Origin: Candidatus Micrarchaeota archaeon
Lineage (GTDB): Archaea; Micrarchaeota; Micrarchaeia; Anstonellales; Anstonellaceae
Assembly (NCBI GenBank): GCA_026414185.1
Contig: JAOAJL010000002.1
Coordinates: 11,075-75,074, forward strand
Direction of reading: 5' to 3'
Length of the DNA: 64,000 nt
Part shown: in pieces, positions 12,755 to 21,417 of the stretch
Layout: the number at the start of each line of letters is the position of its first letter
How positions within the stretch are numbered: the stretch's first letter is position 1
Notes under the pieces: model-generated
The model's database searches: none
Told to the model about the DNA's origin: nothing
What the model saw: only the letters and a program-made list of their open reading frames with translations
Made by a program: the position numbers and the translations under genes

Positions 12755-14233
12755 CTAAATCCCGTAGTCCTTGGCAAGCCTCCTCTCCAGAAGCTCGGCG
12801 GACATAAGCACAATCGGTATGCCCCCGCCTGGGTGCGTGCTTGCCCCGACAAAATAAAGATTGCGGATGCGCCGGTCCTTGTTGGGCGGCCTGAAGCCTG
12901 CCGACTGGAAAAGCGACGGGGAAAGGCCGAAAGTTGCTCCATCCTCAACGTTGAAGGAAGCCTTCCAGTCTTCCGGAGTGAAAACCTTCTCCATCACAAT
13001 GCGCTTTTCCAAATCCGAAATTCCGTGCGAGGAGAGCCTCTCCAGCACCGCCTTCCTCACCTTTGGCGCCTCATCCTTCCAGCTTATCGCTGAGGCGGTG
13101 TTTGGCACCGGCACAAGCACATAAAGCACGCTTTTTCCAGCCGGGGCAAGCGAGGGGTCGTGGGCGCAGGGGTTGGCTACATAAATTCCCGGCTTTTGCG
13201 GCATGACTCGCCTGTCAAATATGTCCTCAAAGGTCTTCAGGTACTCATCAGGGAGGAAAAAGGAGTGGTGCGGAAGCCCAACCTTCCCCTCAATCCCCCA
13301 GTAGAACATCAGCGCGGAGCAGGATTTTTTCAAAGCCCGCACCTTGCTGTCTGGGAAGTGGGGGCGGTTCGCCTCGCTTATCAGATGAAGGTAGGTGTAG
13401 GGCAGGTCGGCGTTGGATATGACCGCATCCGCCTCCACAACAGTGCCGTCCGAAAGCAGAAGCCCACTTGCCGAGCCATCCTTGACAATTATCCTCTGCA
13501 CCGCCTTTCCGCAGTTTATCCTCACCCCAAGCTCCAAGCAGAGCTTTTCAAGCGCCTCTGCTATGGAGTAAAGCCCCCCTTTGGGATACCAAACTCCCTC
13601 TGTGAATTCAACGTATGGTATGAGCCCGTATACGGCAGGCAGCCTGGTTGGCGCAGCGCCTATGTAAACCGACTGAAGCGAAAAGGCTATCCGCACGCGC
13701 GGGTCTGAAAAGTAATCCCCGGTCTTTGAATAAAGGTCCCTCAGCGCCCCACCTGAAAGGAGGGAAATTATGCCCCGCGGAGTGAGCATGTCAAGAGGCG
13801 AGTCAAAATTTTTCATTATAAACTCGCGCATGGCTATCTCATAGTATCTCCGGTAGTCTGCCAGCCAGCGCGAATATCCTGCCTCGCCGTTGCGCTCAAT
13901 TCTGCCTATCTCTTCAATCATCTCCATGGTTTTCGTTGAAGGCGCAATCTGGGAGCCGTCCTCAAAGTAGATGCGATAAACCGGCTCAAGCTTGGCAAGC
14001 TTCAGGTAGTCTTCGGCGTTTCTCCCAATGTCGGAAAAGAAGCGCCTCAGCACATGCGGCATCAAAAGCAGGGTTGGCCCTGTATCCACTCTGAAATTGT
14101 CCTTTTGGAAATTTGAAAGCCGCCCCCCAACCCTGCCGTTTTTTTCGTAAATCTCCACCCGGACGCCGCGCCTGGCAAGCCTGCAGGCGGACGCCATCCC
14201 GCCAACCCCAGCCCCGATGACTGCTATTTTCAC
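12755..14233 (-). CDS. crtI: phytoene desaturase (CrtI family FAD-dependent oxidoreductase)
   Basis: KIAVIGAGVGGMASACRLARRGVRVEIYEKN dinucleotide-binding fold. I prefer GTG 14233, preceded by GAAGGTGAG. The track ORF extends to 14284. Confidence 0.85.
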   Translation of the reverse strand: MKIAVIGAGVGGMASACRLARRGVRVEIYEKNGRVGGRLSNFQKDNFRVDTGPTLLLMPHVLRRFFSDIGRNAEDYLKLAKLEPVYRIYFEDGSQIAPSTKTMEMIEEIGRIERNGEAGYSRWLADYRRYYEIAMREFIMKNFDSPLDMLTPRGIISLLSGGALRDLYSKTGDYFSDPRVRIAFSLQSVYIGAAPTRLPAVYGLIPYVEFTEGVWYPKGGLYSIAEALEKLCLELGVRINCGKAVQRIIVKDGSASGLLLSDGTVVEADAVISNADLPYTYLHLISEANRPHFPDSKVRALKKSCSALMFYWGIEGKVGLPHHSFFLPDEYLKTFEDIFDRRVMPQKPGIYVANPCAHDPSLAPAGKSVLYVLVPVPNTASAISWKDEAPKVRKAVLERLSSHGISDLEKRIVMEKVFTPEDWKASFNVEDGATFGLSPSLFQSAGFRPPNKDRRIRNLYFVGASTHPGGGIPIVLMSAELLERRLAKDYGI

Positions 14234-14342
14234 CTGCTCACCTTCCTCACGCCATTTGACGAACGTTTTATTTATTAAGCTCATCTACGAATGCTTCGCA
14301 GGCGACCAATCCCGCGCGGCTCGGCGCACAGGCGTGTTGGAA

Positions 14343-16106
14343 ATGGCAATCATCAACAGGCTCAACTGCAAGATAGGCGGACCTGCTGGGACAGGCGTAA
14401 TGACGATGGGTGCTCTGTTTGCCAAGTGCCTCCAGAGAGCGGGCCTTGAAGTGGTGGGCACAAACGACTACCCGTCGCTTATCAAGGGCGGGCACAACAC
14501 CTACAAGATAAGGGCGGCGCCTGAGCCGATAAGCGCCATCGTTGGCAAATACGACCTTCTGCTTGCCCTTGACCGCCTCACAGTAGAGCTCCACTGGGAA
14601 GAGCTTGTGGAAGGCGGGGCGGTAATATACGACTCTGACCATGTGAAAGAGCCATCAAGCCTGATCGGGCGCAGCGACATCGTGCTCATCGGCGCTCCGC
14701 TTACACAGATGGCATCTGCCGCAGGCGGGGAGATAATGTTCAATACAGTGGCGCTTGGCGCCGCCATGGGCTTGATGCACCTTGATTTTGCCATACTTGA
14801 AAAGCTTCTCAAGTCAATATGGGCAAGAAAGGGCTCAAAGGTGGTGGATGCGAACATAGCAGCCGCACAGGCGGGCTATGACTTTGTGAAGGAGAAAAAC
14901 GGCGCCTTCCGAGTCCAGATAGAGGAGATAAAAGGCAAAAAGCCGAAGATGTTCATCAACGGCAATGAGGCTTGCGTGCTGGGCGCAGTCAAGGCAGGCT
15001 GCAAATTCGTGGCAGAATACCCGATGTCGCCTTCCACCTCCATCCTGCACCTCATGGCTGGGCACGAGCGGGAATACGGCATAGTAGTCAAGCAGACCGA
15101 AGACGAGATTGCGGCGGCAAACATGATTGCAGGGGCAGGCGCGGCAGGCGTGCGCGCGATGACGGCGACCTCTGGAGGCGGCTTTTCGCTGATGGTGGAG
15201 GCGCTTGGGCTTATGGGGATTGCAGAGATACCTGCCGTCATATTTGAATCACAGCGCGCAGGGCCATCCACAGGGCTGCCTACCTACACAGAGCAGGCGG
15301 ACCTGCTTTTCGCGCTTCATGCCTCGCAAGGAGAATTTCCACGCGTGGTTGTCGCCCCGGGAGACCCTCTTGAGTGCTACCTGGAAGCGATAAACGCATT
15401 CAACATAGCAGAGCTTGTCCAGACTCCCGTAATCGTCCTTCTTGACAAATTCCTCTCAGAAACCTCGCTCACCATTGAGGATGTGCGGAGCATACCCGTC
15501 AAGATTGAGCGGGGCAAGCTCATGACTGATGAGCAGATGGAATCCGCAACGGGCTTCAAGCGCTATGCTTTCAGCGAGGACGGGATTTCCCCACGCTGCA
15601 TATTCGGGCAGAAAAATTCCATTCACGTGGCATCAAGCTACGAGCACGATGAAACCGGCTTCACATCAGAAGACCCAAAGATGAGGGTGGCGATGATAAA
15701 CAAGAGGGCAAGGAAGCTCTCAGCAATTCCCGACTACATAATCGCCCCCTCGTTTGCCGGCGCTGGCGAGGATTCCGCCGAGATACTGCTGGTGTGCTGG
15801 GGCTCCACAAAGATGCCGATGCTTGAGGCGCTGAAGCTTTTAGGGCAGCAGGGCATAGCCGCGCGCATGATGCATATCCGCTACGCCTCTCCCTTCCCAG
15901 CAAGGGCGGTGCTCTCAGCACTCACATCAGCGATGCACTCGCACGGCAAGACCGTGATTTTTGAAGGAAATTCCACTGCGCAGATGCGCAGCCTCATATT
16001 CCAAAAGACAGGCTATTACATAGAGAATGCCTACCTGCGCTATGACGCACGGCCATTCAAGGCGGAGGAGATTGCTCAGGCGGCAAGAAAGCATCTTGGA
16101 AGGTAG
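14343..16106 (+). CDS. 2-oxoacid:ferredoxin oxidoreductase, alpha subunit (gamma-alpha fused, two-subunit type)
   Basis: Start at ATG 14343 (MAIINRLNCKIGGPAGTGVMTMGALFAK...) matches the N-termini of Sulfolobus-type OFOR alpha. Followed directly by the beta subunit. Confidence 0.85.
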   Translation: MAIINRLNCKIGGPAGTGVMTMGALFAKCLQRAGLEVVGTNDYPSLIKGGHNTYKIRAAPEPISAIVGKYDLLLALDRLTVELHWEELVEGGAVIYDSDHVKEPSSLIGRSDIVLIGAPLTQMASAAGGEIMFNTVALGAAMGLMHLDFAILEKLLKSIWARKGSKVVDANIAAAQAGYDFVKEKNGAFRVQIEEIKGKKPKMFINGNEACVLGAVKAGCKFVAEYPMSPSTSILHLMAGHEREYGIVVKQTEDEIAAANMIAGAGAAGVRAMTATSGGGFSLMVEALGLMGIAEIPAVIFESQRAGPSTGLPTYTEQADLLFALHASQGEFPRVVVAPGDPLECYLEAINAFNIAELVQTPVIVLLDKFLSETSLTIEDVRSIPVKIERGKLMTDEQMESATGFKRYAFSEDGISPRCIFGQKNSIHVASSYEHDETGFTSEDPKMRVAMINKRARKLSAIPDYIIAPSFAGAGEDSAEILLVCWGSTKMPMLEALKLLGQQGIAARMMHIRYASPFPARAVLSALTSAMHSHGKTVIFEGNSTAQMRSLIFQKTGYYIENAYLRYDARPFKAEEIAQAARKHLGR

Positions 16107-16111
16107 TTTTC

Positions 16112-16966
16112 ATGGTTTCGATTGAACAGCTGAATTCCGGGCATCTTCCAAGCTGGTGCCCTGGCTGCGGAGACTTCGGCATACTAATCGCGCTTAAGGG
16201 GGCGATTGCCAAACTGGGCCTTGAGCCGCACCGGACGGTGGTTGTTTCGGGTGTGGGCTGCGGAAGCAAAATTCCCCACTTCATCAAAACCTGCGGCTTT
16301 GAAAGCCTGCACGGGCGCGCGTTGCCACCCGCAACGGCGATACACCTTGCGAACCACGAGCTTACCGTCATCGCCATAGGAGGCGATGGCGACGGCTGCG
16401 GCATTGGCTTGGGGCATTTCATGCACACGATGCGGCGCAACCTTGACATAACATACATCATACAGGACAACGAAATCTACGGGCTCACCGTCGGGCAGGC
16501 GTCGGCAACGACCAAGAAAGGGACGATAACGAAAAGCACGCCGCACGGAACACCCGAGGATGCGATAAACCCGCCCCTCATAGCCCTCGCAGCAGGGGCG
16601 ACATTCGTGGCGCGCGGATTCTCAGGCGACATCCCGCATCTTACCAGCCTAATCGCGCAGGGCATAGAGCACAGGGGCGTTGCGTTCATAGATGTTTTTC
16701 AGCCCTGCGTGACTTGGAGAAAGGACTTGCCCTATTCTCTTTACCAGCAGAAAATCTACAAGCTTGAGGAGGCTGGGCATGATGTGACTGACTGGGAGGC
16801 GGCGGTGGCGCGCGCGAGGGAAACCGAACGCTGGCCAATAGGCGTTTTCTACAAGGTGCAAAAGCCAATCTACACAGACCAGATTCCATTCCTCAGGGAG
16901 AAGCCCCTGGTAAAAGCGGACATATCAAATGTCAGCATTGACAAGTTCGTAGAGGAATTCCTCTGA
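16112..16966 (+). CDS. 2-oxoacid:ferredoxin oxidoreductase, beta (TPP-binding) subunit
   Basis: WCPGCGDFGIL and IAIGGDGDG TPP/Mg motifs. Lies 5 nt after alpha. Confidence 0.85.
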   Translation: MVSIEQLNSGHLPSWCPGCGDFGILIALKGAIAKLGLEPHRTVVVSGVGCGSKIPHFIKTCGFESLHGRALPPATAIHLANHELTVIAIGGDGDGCGIGLGHFMHTMRRNLDITYIIQDNEIYGLTVGQASATTKKGTITKSTPHGTPEDAINPPLIALAAGATFVARGFSGDIPHLTSLIAQGIEHRGVAFIDVFQPCVTWRKDLPYSLYQQKIYKLEEAGHDVTDWEAAVARARETERWPIGVFYKVQKPIYTDQIPFLREKPLVKADISNVSIDKFVEEFL

Positions 16967-16977
16967 AAGCCGCCTGG

Positions 16978-18186
16978 CTAGCGGGCTAATTTCGCAATCC
17001 TGCCGAGTGTTTCTGCGAAAGTTTCTATCTCTTCTTCGGTGTTGTAGATGTAAAGGGAAGCCCTCACGGCACCGCCAGGCGCGCCGAGGGATTCCATGGC
17101 AGGCTGGGCGCAGAAAGTCCCAGAGCGCAGGGCAATGCTGGCAAGGCTGTCTGACATGAGCGCTACCTGATGATGAGGCACCCCCGCGATGTTGAAGCAG
17201 GCAAGCGCACAGCGTTTTTCAGGCGATGGGTGACCGTAAAGGACCGCGCCTTTGACGCCGCCAATTGCCTCAATCAGCCTCTTTGCAAGCTTTCTTTCGT
17301 GCTCCTCAACTGCCGCCATCCCTATCCTTGACATATAATCGCAGGCGGCTCCAAGCCCGGCTGCGCCAGCGTAATTTTGTATCCCGCCCTCAAAGCGCTT
17401 TGCGCCCCTTTTCCATCTGACCTGCCCGATTCTCACGCTCTCAATCGTTTCTCCGCCGACAATGAAGCTGTCAAGCCGCTCAAGCGCGTCCTTTTTTGCG
17501 ACAAGGCAGCCTATCCCGGTAGGTCCGCACATCTTGTGTCCTGAGAAGGCAAGGAAGTCCGCCCCAAGCCTCTTGAAGTCAACCTTGGAATGCGCAACTC
17601 CCTGCGCCCCATCCACCAGCACAGCCGCGCCAGCCTCGTGCGCAATCTTCACGATTTTTTCAAGAGGCGCGCGCATGCCGGTGGTGTTGGTGGTGTGGTG
17701 GACGACAACCAGCGCAGTAAGCCGGTCTATGCAATCCGCAATGCCCTCCTCGTCAAAAGTCCCGTCCGGGTTTGTCCTCATCAGCTCCATCTTAGCCACC
17801 CCTCGCCTTTCCTGTTCCATCACAGGCAGGAGGGCGGAGTGGTGCTCAAGGACCGTGGTGACTATCTTCTTGCGAGAAGAGTAATCAAAGGAGCGGATGG
17901 CAAGGTTCAGGGCTTCTGTGGCATTTTTGGTGAAAACCACTCCCTCCGCATCTGCGTTCAAAAACGCCGCCACCTTCTTCCGCGCCTGCTCAAAAAGCTC
18001 CTCTGTCCTTTTCGCAAGCCGGTGGGCGCTCCTTCCGGCGCAGCCTGCCGCTTGCTCATAGTATGCCGCCTCCGCATCAATGACAGCCTTCGGCTTGAGG
18101 GAAGTGCAGGCGGAATCAAAATATATGGCGCCTGTCTTTTGCAACGCAGGAAAATCCTGCCTGATGCGCCTGGCGTCAAGTGCCAT
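16978..18186 (-). CDS. cysteine desulfurase (SufS/CsdA-like class V aminotransferase)
   Basis: HHTTNTTG, LVDGAQGVAH, FSGHKMCGPTGIG (PLP Lys) and RSGTFCAQP (catalytic Cys). Confidence 0.85.
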   Translation of the reverse strand: MALDARRIRQDFPALQKTGAIYFDSACTSLKPKAVIDAEAAYYEQAAGCAGRSAHRLAKRTEELFEQARKKVAAFLNADAEGVVFTKNATEALNLAIRSFDYSSRKKIVTTVLEHHSALLPVMEQERRGVAKMELMRTNPDGTFDEEGIADCIDRLTALVVVHHTTNTTGMRAPLEKIVKIAHEAGAAVLVDGAQGVAHSKVDFKRLGADFLAFSGHKMCGPTGIGCLVAKKDALERLDSFIVGGETIESVRIGQVRWKRGAKRFEGGIQNYAGAAGLGAACDYMSRIGMAAVEEHERKLAKRLIEAIGGVKGAVLYGHPSPEKRCALACFNIAGVPHHQVALMSDSLASIALRSGTFCAQPAMESLGAPGGAVRASLYIYNTEEEIETFAETLGRIAKLAR

Positions 18187-19141
18187 CTCCTCCCCCTGAA
18201 AGCAGCCGCCTTACCTCATTCTCTGCCTCCTTCACCGCGTTTTGCCCTACAAACGGCTTGCCGTTCACAAAGAATGTCGGCGTGCCGTATATGCCGCACT
18301 CCTGGCCCTCCTTTTCGGTCTTCTGTATAAATGACAAAAATTTCCTGCCAGTGTAGCAGGCGTCAAAGGAAGGGCTGATGTTGAGGCGGTGTGCAATCTC
18401 CAAAAGTGCGGCATCACCCCGCCGCATCACGTCAGCCTGGTTCTCAAAGAGCGCTTGGCGGTATTCCCAATACCTGCCCTGCTCCCCGGCGCATGACGCC
18501 GCCAACGCGGCTTCGGTTGAGTGCGGATGGGAGAGGATGGGAAAGGGCTTGAAGACAAAATAAACGTCGTTTCTGTGCTTCTCAAGCATCTCTCTCACAT
18601 CAGACTCTGCCGACTTGGTGTAGGGGCATACATAGCAGCCGAACTCTATCACCACCACCTTTGCGCTTGCGTTGCCAGCAGTTATCCCGTCAAGCGAGCC
18701 TGGCGCTTTCAGAAACGCCGTGTTGTGCAGGCTGTTGTATGCGCAAAAGCCGCCCTGCGGCCCGTTGCAGTTTCCGTATACAGCAAAGTTGTAAATGCCC
18801 GCAAACGCCACTGCGAAGCTTGCGAAAAATATGGCGGCAAAGGCAAGCGAGAATGCCTCAAAGTGCCTGTTTACGAATGAAGCCGCAGCCGGGCTCACCC
18901 TCATTATTCCCGCTATGCTTGCAGCCTTCAGCTCCTCGTCAAGCCCGGTTTCGCACGGTCTGAGAGTGGCTTTGCGCACGGCGCAGTCAAACGCCCTTGC
19001 CGCAAGCGGCCGGTATTTCGCGGAGAAGACTGAAAGAAAAGCAAAAACGAAAAGAGCGACAAAGCAGAGCACCAAGCAAATCACCCAATTTGCGTGCCTA
19101 CCTTGGCGGCTTTGAGTTGCGCCTCCTTTCCATCGCGTCAA
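18176..19141 (-). CDS. membrane-anchored DsbA-like thiol:disulfide oxidoreductase with Cys-containing N-terminal membrane module
   Basis: The C-terminal domain has FGCYVCPY (CxxC) and GIYGTPTFFVNGK (cis-Pro loop). The N-terminal about 130 aa have 2-3 TM helices and paired cysteines (DCAVRKATLRPCE; GNCNGPQGGFC). TTG start at 19141 overlaps the upstream gene. GTG 19087 is an alternative. Confidence 0.7.
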   Translation of the reverse strand: MTRWKGGATQSRQGRHANWVICLVLCFVALFVFAFLSVFSAKYRPLAARAFDCAVRKATLRPCETGLDEELKAASIAGIMRVSPAAASFVNRHFEAFSLAFAAIFFASFAVAFAGIYNFAVYGNCNGPQGGFCAYNSLHNTAFLKAPGSLDGITAGNASAKVVVIEFGCYVCPYTKSAESDVREMLEKHRNDVYFVFKPFPILSHPHSTEAALAASCAGEQGRYWEYRQALFENQADVMRRGDAALLEIAHRLNISPSFDACYTGRKFLSFIQKTEKEGQECGIYGTPTFFVNGKPFVGQNAVKEAENEVRRLLSGGGDGT

Positions 19142-20204
19142 TCACCCGCTCTTCCGCGATTGCAAGGGCGGCTGCCCTCAAGTCCCCGTTTTTTGCCTTC
19201 TCAAGCACAAGGCGGGTGTTGGCGGTTATCTTTTCCTTGACCATGGAAAACATCTCCTTTTCAGAGCCGCCTATGAACTCAACATAGGATGAGATGACCC
19301 CGCCGGCATTTGCCACAAAGTCAGGTATTATGAGTATTCCCCTCTTGGCAAGCTGCTGCTCTATCTCGTGCCTCATCGGTATGTTTGCCGCCTCCACGAT
19401 TATCTTCGCCTTTATTGAGTGCATGTTGCCGGCATGAATGACATCGGGCCTTGCCCCAGGTATCAAAACGTCGCACTTGACGGAAAAAAGCTCGCGCGCC
19501 TCAAGCACCTTTGCGCCAGGATAAGCAGCCACGGTGCCCTTCTCCTTCTTCACCCTCATCAGCGTTTCAAAATCAAGCCCCCCTTCAAGATATGCAGCTC
19601 CCTTGGAGTCGGAAACCGCAACGATTTTCGCCCCCCAGCTGCTAAGGTGCTTTGCTGTGAAAGTGCCGACATTCCCGAATCCTTCAATTGCGACAGTGGC
19701 TCCCTCAATGGGTATTTTCGCGTGTTCAAGAGCCACCTGCGTGGAAAGGGCAACGCCGTAGCCGGTTGAGCCAAGCTCGTGCGGAAGCCCTCCCATGCTG
19801 GCTGGCTTGCCGGTCGCGGCTTTCGGCGTGCCTATGGTTTCAGCGATTATCTTCATGTCCCCCTCGCCCATGTTCATGTCAGGTCCGGGTATGTACGTCT
19901 TGGGCACAAGCTCGGCTATTTTTTCGGCAAAGGCGGCAACAAGCTGCGCCTTGTGGGAGTTTGAAGCAGAAGCCTTTATGCCAGATTTCGCCCCTCCAAA
20001 CGGAATGTCCGCAAGCGCATTTTTCCAAGTCATCGCCCGAGCAAGACCGAACACTTCCTCAGTTGTTATGTCCGGAACCATCCTGATTCCGCCCTTTCCA
20101 GGTCCAAGAGCAGTGTTGTCTATGACCACTACTCCCTGCATCTTGGTTATCGGGTCATAAACCTGCAGTATCTTTTCAGGACCTATCGCATCCTCAAACG
20201 GCAT
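19098..20204 (-). CDS. Glu/Leu/Phe/Val dehydrogenase family amino-acid dehydrogenase
   Basis: Start at ATG 20204, preceded by AAAGGTGAG. GPGKGGIRMVP and FGGAKSGI motifs and a GFGNVG NAD(P) fold. 368 aa. Confidence 0.85.
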   Translation of the reverse strand: MPFEDAIGPEKILQVYDPITKMQGVVVIDNTALGPGKGGIRMVPDITTEEVFGLARAMTWKNALADIPFGGAKSGIKASASNSHKAQLVAAFAEKIAELVPKTYIPGPDMNMGEGDMKIIAETIGTPKAATGKPASMGGLPHELGSTGYGVALSTQVALEHAKIPIEGATVAIEGFGNVGTFTAKHLSSWGAKIVAVSDSKGAAYLEGGLDFETLMRVKKEKGTVAAYPGAKVLEARELFSVKCDVLIPGARPDVIHAGNMHSIKAKIIVEAANIPMRHEIEQQLAKRGILIIPDFVANAGGVISSYVEFIGGSEKEMFSMVKEKITANTRLVLEKAKNGDLRAAALAIAEERVIDAMERRRNSKPPR

Positions 20205-20271
20205 TTTCTCACCTTTCAAGCTAAAAGCGAAATCGGCTTTGGAAGAACGGGAAAAGGGAATAAAAACGCTT

Positions 20272-21315
20272 CTATTGCGTCCCTCTGCACCTCTGGGTTT
20301 CCGGGTCGCAGCTGCTGCCCGGGCAGTCCTCGTTTGACGAGCAGGTGACCTTGACGCATCTGTAGGCATTTATGGACAGCGGGTCAAGCTCGCAGCGCTC
20401 GTCAAAGCGGCAGTCCGCCTGCTTTGTGCACCATCCCGCCCTTGTCTCGCACACATGGCTTTCCTCGTTGCACTTCTGCCATACGCCGCACTCGGAGTCT
20501 GATGAGCAGAAGCCCCTGCGCGTCTCGCAGCGGTGGGTCTGCAAGTTGCAAGTCTGCCAAGGCTCGCAGTCGCCCGCAATTGAGCAAAGGGAGCGTTTCG
20601 CCTCGCAGGTGTGCTTTTCTGGGTTGCAAAGCTGCCAGCTCCTGCAGTCCTCGTCAGTTTCGCAGAATTGCGGACCAGCAATGCAGCGGTGAAGGGCGGA
20701 GTCGCATATCTGCCAGCCCTCGCAGTCCAAATCATTGTTGCAGAAACCTTCCTTGACAATACAGCGGTTTGAGGAAACGTTGCAAGTCTGCCAAAGCTTG
20801 CAGTCAACATCGCTTGCGCACCTGCCGGCAAGCGGCACGCACTTTTTGGAGGCTAAATTGCAAGTCTGCCACGACTGGCAGTCAAATGCCGAAAGGCAAT
20901 TGCCCGGCTTGGGGACGCAGACGTGCCTTGATGGAGAGCAGACTTGAGTGGCTTTGTCGCAGACATCGTCGCTGTCGCAGAAGCCAGCCTTCGCCCTGCA
21001 GGTGTTGTTCATCGCCAGGTCGCAGCCCTGCCAGCTGCCGCAGTCAACATCGCTTCTGCATCTTCCCGGCAGAAAGGCGCACTTGTGGGTGTTCTGGTCG
21101 CAGATTTTAAGCGGGTCTTTGCAGTCAGAGTCCGCCGCGCAGTAGCCCTCCTTCGTTATGCACTGCTTTTTAGCAGTGTCGCAAGTCTGCCAAGACTTGC
21201 AGCCCCTGTCAGAGCTGCATCCAGAGCCGATGCAGCCTGCCATTAAAAACACAATCAGCACTCCCGCAGTTGCAAACAAGAGCAAGAAACTGCGCACAAA
21301 ACCACCTTCCTTCAC
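20272..21315 (-). CDS. secreted cysteine-rich repeat lipoprotein (12 tandem 4-Cys modules)
   Basis: GTG start with a TATA-like box about 27 nt upstream. Signal peptide with lipobox-like LMAGC. It is followed by 12 repeats of consensus C-x-s-D-x-D-C-x-x-W-Q-x-C-n-x-x-x-h-x-C-x-x-k-x-G-f, 23-29 aa each. Confidence 0.8.
   Translation of the reverse strand: MKEGGFVRSFLLLFATAGVLIVFLMAGCIGSGCSSDRGCKSWQTCDTAKKQCITKEGYCAADSDCKDPLKICDQNTHKCAFLPGRCRSDVDCGSWQGCDLAMNNTCRAKAGFCDSDDVCDKATQVCSPSRHVCVPKPGNCLSAFDCQSWQTCNLASKKCVPLAGRCASDVDCKLWQTCNVSSNRCIVKEGFCNNDLDCEGWQICDSALHRCIAGPQFCETDEDCRSWQLCNPEKHTCEAKRSLCSIAGDCEPWQTCNLQTHRCETRRGFCSSDSECGVWQKCNEESHVCETRAGWCTKQADCRFDERCELDPLSINAYRCVKVTCSSNEDCPGSSCDPETQRCRGTQ
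20293..21219 (-). repeat. 12 degenerate tandem coding repeats of about 78 bp (26-aa 4-Cys module)
   Basis: Seen in translation, e.g. CASDVDCKLWQTCNVSSNRCIVKEGF / CNNDLDCEGWQICDSALHRCIAGPQF / CETDEDCRSWQLCNPEKHTCEAKRSL. Confidence 0.8.
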
Positions 21316-21417
21316 TTCTGTCTTTGGGTTTCTAAAGCATTAAAAAGCAATACTTTGGGCGTTTTTTCCACCCCATCCATCGTTAAGCTTATAATGCTTG
21401 AAAGGGCATCTGAAAGC

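Follow-up and report, generated by a model that had tools for sequence, protein, structure and literature searches.

DPANN archaea, Micrarchaeota included, live attached to host cells, and their surface proteins are little known. Lipoproteins and the lipidation factor AliA have been reported in DPANN (PMC12462473). A rigid-stalk role has been proposed for the cysteine-rich repeats of TraA, a Myxococcus protein (PMC3325183). Among small disulfide-rich folds, the disulfide-directed β-hairpin (DDH) is defined by the disulfide connectivity I-III/II-IV (PMC11891777). Here, we analysed a 64,000-nucleotide stretch of DNA (the window) from a Candidatus Micrarchaeota archaeon (assembly GCA_026414185.1, contig JAOAJL010000002.1, positions 11,075 to 75,074), which encodes a cysteine-rich protein with a lipid-anchor signal followed by twelve tandem four-cysteine modules. 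The protein belongs to a family that is widespread in Micrarchaeota but unstudied; its module is a variant of a cysteine-rich repeat type shared with bacteria and partly captured by Pfam. Our literature search on cysteine-rich or disulfide proteins of Micrarchaeota found nothing relevant, and a preprint on the cysteine-rich repeats of eukaryotic proteins does not address this family (bioRxiv 10.64898/2026.06.07.730663).

A lipobox-like motif and an array of four-cysteine modules

The open reading frame (ORF) of interest encodes 347 residues including 49 cysteines (14.1%), in agreement with the share of about 14% given in an earlier note made from the letters of the window. One cysteine, Cys28, resides in a lipobox-like LMAGC motif. 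The other 48 form twelve consecutive four-cysteine modules of 26, 27, 27, 27, 26, 26, 26, 26, 26, 26, 29, and 23 residues, which bears out the description in that note of a secreted, lipobox-bearing protein consisting almost entirely of twelve such units of 23–29 residues. The gene and its product comprise the following features.

20272..21315, minus strand: ORF of the cysteine-rich lipobox protein, 347 residues, GTG start, TAG stop at 20272-20274
21340..21346, minus strand: putative TATA-like element TTTTTAA, about 25–30 nt upstream of the first GTG, judged from sequence
21295..21297, minus strand: alternative GTG start, which would give 341 residues beginning MRSFLLLF
21235..21315, minus strand: predicted signal anchor, residues 1–27, a K/R n-region and a hydrophobic helix
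21232..21246, minus strand: lipobox-like LMAGC, residues 24–28, with Cys28 the predicted lipidated and first mature residue
21220..21231, minus strand: Gly/Ser linker IGSG, residues 29–32
21142..21219, minus strand: module 1, residues 33–58, W-Q type
21061..21141, minus strand: module 2, residues 59–85, no W-Q, spacing 5,6,6,6
20980..21060, minus strand: module 3, residues 86–112, W-Q type
20899..20979, minus strand: module 4, residues 113–139, no W-Q, a conserved His and Pro-x-Pro-Gly
20431..20898, minus strand: modules 5–10, residues 140–295, six canonical 26-residue W-Q modules
20275..20430, minus strand: modules 11–12, residues 296–347, divergent, C-terminal, found only in the 12-module clade
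20252..20284, minus strand: terminator-like hairpin and oligo-T tracts, spanning the stop codon and beyond

The commonest spacing in the window protein is C-x5-C-x5-C-x6-C-x6, and modules 5–10 follow the motif C-x2-D-x-D-C-x2-W-Q-x-C-[DN]-x5-C-x4-G-[FYR]. The regular expression C.{5}C.{4,6}C.{6,11}C matches the protein twelve times, against a maximum of five in 20,000 composition-preserving shuffles of its residues, and the remaining six-frame translation of the window contains only seven isolated chance matches. The earlier note had ascribed four invariant cysteines, a conserved Asp pair, and a W-Q dipeptide to each repeat. This holds for the cysteines in 12/12 modules but not for W-Q, which is present in 8/12 and missing from modules 2, 4, 11, and 12, nor for the acidic pair: Asp occupies position 4 in 8/12 modules and Asp or Glu position 6 in 10/12, with both in 6/12.

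The ORF is a genuine coding gene because the G+C content at its third codon positions reaches 0.73 (0.47/0.53/0.73 for the first, second, and third positions), dN/dS against the close orthologues L001, L003, and L004 is about 0.2–0.3 with saturated dS, and 49 orthologues exist. It is also the sole genuinely cysteine-rich ORF within the 64-kb window. Several ORFs of 50–150 residues overlap it in other frames and are artefacts of the GC-rich sequence. The suggestion that one of these might be the coding frame, and the cysteine-rich frame no gene at all, has virtually nothing left to recommend it, given the codon statistics and purifying selection in the called frame, the invariant cysteine columns of the 49 orthologues in that same frame, and the AlphaFold2 confidence for its product (predicted local distance difference test, pLDDT, of 87). 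The true start is one of the two GTG codons at 21315 and 21297, and may be the second. A Shine-Dalgarno-like AGGTG motif (21303-21307) lies 5 nt upstream of the second GTG, and the N-terminus starting there resembles those of the family, typically MR followed by hydrophobic residues. At the other end, the hairpin and oligo-T tracts suggest archaeal oligo-T termination and a gene that would form its own transcription unit.

Scanning one genome per GTDB species, we found 52 loci, comprising 49 in Micrarchaeota metagenome-assembled genomes (MAGs) and three weak bacterial ones (L050-L052) from Myxococcales, Corallococcus, and Bradymonadales. The scan used a single peptide pattern, and its count is a lower bound, so that the family occurs in at least 49 Micrarchaeota assemblies. 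These include Anstonellaceae, LFW isolates, and one complete 1.57-Mb chromosome. Close relatives of the window protein come from MAGs of Micrarchaeia/Anstonellaceae; the NCBI taxonomy places Anstonellaceae in the class Micrarchaeia of the DPANN kingdom Nanobdellati. A word-indexed protein search returned five relatives with 38–57% identity, all labelled PF19232, and a HMMER search against 1.84 billion cluster representatives gave 254 matches at E ≤ 1e-3, including 96 at E ≤ 1e-10. The window protein itself, looked up in exact form with either start, is missing from a collection of 15 billion proteins, which therefore does not contain the source genome.

We could parse the architecture of 43 of the 49 Micrarchaeota orthologues, on which the following statistics rest. 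All 43 share one layout, in which a short K/R n-region is followed by 15–20 hydrophobic residues, x-Gly-Cys, a G/S/T-rich linker of 3–9 residues, and then only modules. At −3 of the lipobox, L, F, I, V, or M predominate, whereas −1 is Gly in 43/43. The module number is 12 in the clade of the window protein (seven proteins; the clade comprises the window, L001-L009, and P0001), 10 in most others (34), and 8 in two. The cysteine count is always 4n+1 (49, 41, or 33), and the odd cysteine is always that of the lipobox, as expected if this residue is lipidated and all others are paired. Among all fetched homologues, the four cysteines are kept in 1145/1145 full-length module matches. Together with the 4n+1 pattern, this strongly implies the extracytoplasmic disulfide formation that had been proposed for the window protein.

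The 229 modules of standard spacing yield the consensus C-x-x-D(69%)-x-D(64%)-C-x-s-W(90%)-Q/E(82%)-x-C-D/N(83%)-x-x-t/s-H/K-K/R-C-x-x-x-x-G(83%)-Y/F/R. The W-Q-less variants at modules 2 and 4 recur at these places in the 8-, 10-, and 12-module forms alike, and modules 1–7 of the window protein are closer to their counterparts of the same number in 10-module proteins than to other modules. Tandem Repeats Finder detected no tandem repeats at the DNA level in the gene, and the identity between modules of the window protein at non-cysteine positions is only about 0–45%. Judged by this positional orthology of modules 1–7, the missing DNA repeat, and the low identity between modules, the array is an ancient and fixed architecture, not one that freely expands and contracts. 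Recent repeat expansion was considered and ruled out by the absence of a DNA-level tandem repeat.

One homologue departs from the array-only layout. P0008 (622 residues; L054 5001-6869; GCA_041305385.1) has the same lipobox and array, interrupted by a cysteine-poor insert of about 250 residues, and its C-terminal modules resemble modules 11–12 of the window protein. The insert suggests that the putative rod can carry an extra domain. By eye, a 1579-residue protein encoded next to P0008 is cysteine-poor and not obviously secreted.

Predicted fold, relatives of the module, and cellular role

We modelled the window protein with AlphaFold2 from a 17-sequence alignment, obtaining a mean pLDDT of 86.9 and a predicted template modelling score of 0.49; modules 5–10 mostly score between 81 and 96. 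A transmembrane helix is predicted at residues 7–26. For each module, the model shows a β-hairpin and a short helix that covers x-D-x-D-C. The third and fourth cysteines (C3 and C4) are predicted to lie on the two strands of the hairpin, such as C178 and C185 in strands 176–179 and 184–187, and this arrangement recurs in other modules.

Foldseek against the PDB gave no match at E < 1e-3, and the TM-scores were low owing to the elongated chain. Weak local matches were found with EETI-II (25 residues, root-mean-square deviation 1.1–1.3 Å), the N-domain of Dkk4, Draxin, and the Ascaris carboxypeptidase inhibitor. Searching PDB sequences with family and two-module profiles found nothing below E 0.09, the only matches being an LDL-A-like linker, spider toxins, and again the Ascaris inhibitor. 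With the two-module HMMER profile, C1–C4 of the module align weakly with cysteines II, III, V, and VI of spider inhibitor cystine knot (ICK) toxins (E 0.16–0.46).

The DDH consensus, reportedly formulated by Wang and co-workers in 2000, is CX5-19CX2[G/P]X2CX6-19C. The spacing 5/5/6, which is compatible with it, is found in 229/440 modules of the family and the others deviate from it by 1–5 residues; the conserved Trp (90%) falls on the G/P position of the consensus, where the bacterial relative P0039 has Gly. EETI-II, with the sequence C9-KQDSD-C15-LAGCV-C21-GPNGF-C27 and disulfides 9–21 and 15–27, shares both the spacing and the D-x-D-C helix of the module. The Asp residues of the module coincide in position with the DSDC 3-10 helix of squash knottins such as EETI-II. 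This offers a structural explanation for their conservation, the helix, which competes with the calcium binding once considered for them. Each module has only four cysteines and thus lacks the six-cysteine, three-disulfide knot of knottins. From the spacing and the weak local matches, we infer that the module is likely a knottin without the third disulfide, namely a DDH.

A resemblance to myxobacterial cysteine-rich proteins, only vague in the earlier note, is borne out by profile comparison with bacterial lipoprotein modules. Besides the weak loci in Myxococcales, Corallococcus, and Bradymonadales, many of the 254 HMMER matches are apparently bacterial proteins of 500–780 residues, most with a bacterial-type lipobox. 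The lipoproteins among them (e.g., P0012, P0013, P0016, P0018, P0021-P0023, P0029, and P0034) have 9–18 modules of the form C-x5-C-x2-W-[QE]-x2-C-x5-C-x4-G-x, followed by a C-terminal domain of about 300 residues, which had no Pfam match in the two proteins scanned (P0012 and P0017). The array thus sits between the lipid anchor and another domain, the position of a stalk. Comparing archaeal and bacterial two-module profiles, hhalign gave a probability of 99.2% and an E-value of 9e-20, a score inflated by the shared cysteine columns, and phmmer reached the bacterial lipoproteins with E-values down to 1e-58. By these comparisons, the archaeal W-Q modules are homologous to those of the bacterial lipoproteins. 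Among the remaining homologues are proteins with RCC1 or thrombospondin type 3 repeats and ones that match Dickkopf_N.

Two further observations concern these homologues. The conserved C-terminal domain of the bacterial lipoproteins usually ends in TGP (e.g., VTGP or ITGP). P0006, P0011, and P0027 are giants of 1800–2000 residues with about 230–270 cysteines, at least 30 modules, and a composition low in Ala, Gly, Pro, and Arg; P0006 and P0011, the two that were scanned, also contain thrombospondin type 3 repeats.

In the mechanism that we propose, the product would be exported by the Sec pathway through a signal anchor ending in the lipobox-like x-Gly-Cys. The signal peptide would then be removed and Cys28 modified by a lipid, tethering the protein to the outer face of the cytoplasmic membrane. 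Such lipidation is plausible, given that lipoproteins and AliA have been reported in DPANN (PMC12462473). Each module would acquire two disulfides, C1-C3 and C2-C4, making 24 that form outside the cytoplasm, with a nearby DsbA-like protein as one candidate oxidase. The result would be an elongated rod, resistant to proteases and stress, without a catalytic domain. We consider it reasonably probable that the protein is such a lipid-anchored, disulfide-stapled surface rod, serving as a structural stalk or spacer or as an element through which the envelope of these small symbiotic archaea makes contact. This cellular role seems to us the most likely one, held with modest confidence. Between its forms, the stalk or spacer would be the first choice.

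Several observations weigh against this view. The window lipobox reads M(−3) A(−2) G(−1) C(+1), and Met at −3 lies outside the canonical set of the bacterial-type motif [LVI]-[ASTVI]-[GAS]-C (PMC12462473). No cysteine-pair losses that could reveal the disulfide pairing occur among the 1145 modules. The array is conserved to a roughly equal degree over its length, with no gradient that would mark a binding tip. The genes around the cysteine-rich gene are unrelated housekeeping genes, which form no functional operon with it and give no functional clue, and public sources label the members of the family only as "hypothetical protein." Finally, the isolate names of the MAGs indicate a groundwater or sediment origin for many relatives, and extracellular disulfides may be less favoured in such possibly anoxic habitats.

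The main rival is a host-contact adhesin, in which the rod would bind the host cell or the host S-layer, with variable hairpin loops providing specificity; we regard this as possible, though doubtful. The predicted surface anchoring is consistent with it, as is the occurrence of the relatives in Micrarchaeota, which as DPANN archaea are usually regarded as ectosymbionts (PMC8407392). The non-cysteine positions evolve fast, leaving 54–60% identity to relatives as compared with 56–82% for the neighbouring housekeeping genes, and the insert of P0008 could be a binding head. TraA also provides an analogy, being a cell-cell recognition receptor with cysteine-rich repeats (PMC3325183). However, the window protein contains no recognisable ligand-binding domain, and the even conservation leaves no hypervariable tip. 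The conserved syntenic position and the fixed module number suit a housekeeping part of the envelope better than a host-specific adhesin.

A more far-reaching proposal, which is speculative and which we think improbable as it stands, holds that the stand-alone array of fixed length is a lineage-defining envelope organiser of Micrarchaeota, a lipid-anchored strut or ruler setting the distance to the S-layer or the host membrane in episymbiosis. If true, tandem DDH-type modules, known so far from descriptions of single-domain animal peptides, would prove to be an old building block of prokaryotes that archaea and bacteria have in common with giant viruses.

Metal binding and protease inhibition are both unlikely. 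A metallothionein-like protein, or an extracellular oxidant scavenger with 48 reduced cysteines, could account for the high cysteine content and the many acidic residues and would suit the groundwater or sediment from which many relatives seem to originate. This reading has little probability in our judgement, as the cysteine parity is strictly 4n+1 with rigid spacing, the confidently predicted hairpin fold places the cysteines as in disulfide-rich domains, neither CxxC nor CC, the usual signatures of metal sites, occurs, and the genome encodes a DsbA-like oxidase. Still less credible is a tandem array of protease inhibitors or toxin-like units directed at a protease or channel of a host or competitor, for which one could cite the weak local similarity to spider ICK toxins, the WAP family, and the inhibitors EETI-II (trypsin) and that of Ascaris (carboxypeptidase): none of these similarities reaches significance (E 0.01–3, Foldseek probability at most about 0.5), the conserved residues (C, D, W, G, and an aromatic) are structural with no conserved reactive-site loop, and the protein is predicted to be tethered to the membrane.

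Genomic neighbourhood

The genes next to the cysteine-rich gene, and one tRNA match farther away, are listed below.

14217-16966, plus strand: two subunits of pyruvate:ferredoxin oxidoreductase (POR), flanking the DsbA-like gene
16978-18186, minus strand: class-V aminotransferase (cysteine desulfurase-like), flanking the DsbA-like gene
18176..19141, minus strand: DsbA/thioredoxin-like protein, membrane-associated, CYVC motif; Thioredoxin_4 E 6.8e-22, DSBA E 6.2e-14
19098-20369, minus strand: glutamate dehydrogenase (GDH) ORF with an over-extended 5' end; likely start Met56 at 20204, giving 368 residues
21355-22230, plus strand: divergent Ig-like (immunoglobulin-like) protein of 291 residues, seemingly secreted by its N-terminal hydrophobic segment
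36101-36208, minus strand: tRNA match spanning 108 nt

In the clade of the window protein, the genes for ELP3 and the Ig-like protein run in one direction and those for the cysteine-rich protein and GDH diverge from them in the other, and the aminotransferase, the DsbA-like protein, and POR are further neighbours. The order ELP3, Ig-like, cysteine-rich, GDH is common to L001-L005, and GDH is adjacent in all of L001-L009. This synteny backs the orthology of the window protein with its close relatives, and the housekeeping neighbours are 56–82% identical between the window and L001-L009. In the 10-module clade, the gene resides between those of a HAD-type hydrolase and a TIM-barrel protein, with a coiled-coil protein of unknown function also nearby. 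The position of the cysteine-rich gene is thus stably inherited yet uninformative on function.

The earlier note had pointed to a DsbA-like gene about 1.1 kb away on the same strand. The gene is real, lying at a distance of 1131 bp and encoding a CYVC motif. The link is not conserved: within flanks of up to 6 kb on each side, such a gene occurs near the cysteine-rich gene in 3/9 close relatives and in none of about 40 distant ones. We therefore rejected the linkage as a conserved feature. The DsbA-like gene and the aminotransferase gene follow GDH in the window, L003, L006, and L007 but not in L001, L002, L004, and L005, which points to local rearrangement between close relatives at this position. 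The DsbA-like protein aligns over about 300/321 residues in L003, L006, and L007. Its N-terminal region, about 150 residues long, is unusual and has two hydrophobic helices, no Pfam match, and two cysteine pairs, a C-x9-C in a loop and a C-x7-C after the second helix. We take the protein as a possible self-contained thiol oxidase of the membrane.

The 98-nt overlap between the GDH ORF and the cysteine-rich ORF is most likely not real. GDH probably starts at Met56, and GDH beside P0001 (L053) also has 368 residues. Against Pfam, the Ig-like protein gave only weak sub-threshold matches to DUF4625, NPCBM_assoc, and FixG_C, which are Ig-like or CARDB-like; syntenic in L001-L005, it may be another surface protein. 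The 108-nt span of the tRNA match implies an intron, as is typical of archaea, and this tRNA and the ELP3 gene fit the archaeal origin of the window.

Comparison with known systems

The earlier note could not place the module in a named family. This needs correcting in one respect: the window protein scores 57.5 bits against Pfam PF19232 (DUF5885), above the gathering score of 33.2 (E 1.9e-15, four stretches). The rest of the statement stands, as the match is partial and DUF5885 has no function attached to it and no mention in the literature that we searched. The whole window protein covers only about positions 34–108 of the 265-position profile, its fragments and eight relatives likewise stay within about positions 23–109, and typical 10-module orthologues score 20–44 bits, around or below the threshold. 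As only this part of the profile aligns, the link is a shared stretch of two to three repeat modules, not full-length membership. The other Pfam and NCBIfam models compared stayed below threshold, and no well-described repeat of known function was matched. DUF7107 (PF23416) gave 18.3 bits against a threshold of 24.6 (E 0.0031); Dickkopf_N (PF04706) gave 15.3 bits against 25 (E 0.027) on a three-module fragment, and the whole protein was unmatched. The window protein also fell below threshold in WAP, EB, and LDL-A.

Dickkopf_N and DUF7107 have the motif C-x2-D-x-D-C-x2-G/W-x2-C in common with the window module. The N-domain of Dkk4 matches the model of the window protein locally in Foldseek (31% identity over 62 columns), and P0039, the bacterial relative with Gly at the G/P position, matches Dickkopf_N at E 1.2e-19. 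Dkk_N contains 10 cysteines in one domain, unlike the tandem four-cysteine units of the window protein.

TraA is comparable in being a secreted surface protein with tandem cysteine-rich repeats. Among the NCBIfam models, which include TIGR04201 and NF033759 for myxobacterial repeats and TraA, only that of TraA was hit at E ≤ 1, scoring 14 bits in the repeat region where the cutoff is 750, and TIGR04201 was unmatched in that search. The window protein has neither the PA14 head nor the MYXO-CTERM anchor of TraA. The strongest structural matches over the whole chain came from a Foldseek search of predicted viral structures, with 28 giant-virus proteins at E < 1e-3, the best at 1.5e-13. These "EGF-like" or cysteine-rich membrane proteins of Pithovirus, Cedratvirus, and Pandoravirus resemble the window protein as membrane-anchored repeat rods, with a probability of about 1.0 for the best. 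The identity is only 15–24%, the TM-scores stay below 0.2 because the chains are elongated, and the viral proteins are themselves uncharacterised and known as predicted structures only.

The modules of the window protein resemble the DDH and ICK peptides in a compatible four-cysteine spacing, a predicted helix at D-x-D-C, and the predicted placement of C3 and C4 on a hairpin, and differ from them in having Trp at the consensus G/P position. Every sequence and fold match to them is statistically weak, and the connectivity of the window modules is predicted from the likeness. These peptides are free units of about 30 residues, whereas the window protein fuses twelve modules in one prokaryotic lipoprotein.

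The family offers an easily recognised candidate surface protein, with a lipid-anchor signal, a fixed module number, and a presence in at least 49 Micrarchaeota assemblies. With 24 predicted disulfides in one protein, it would imply extensive extracytoplasmic oxidative folding in tiny archaea, and a knottin-like module homologous to bacterial ones bears on the origin of small disulfide-rich folds. We regard it as a well-defined lead into the surface biology of DPANN and into prokaryotic disulfide-rich folds, rather than as a new kind of system or a discovery. Whereas the bacterial lipoproteins add a domain of about 300 residues to a variable number of modules and have a hairpin loop shorter by one residue, the Micrarchaeota protein consists of the array only, with a fixed module number.

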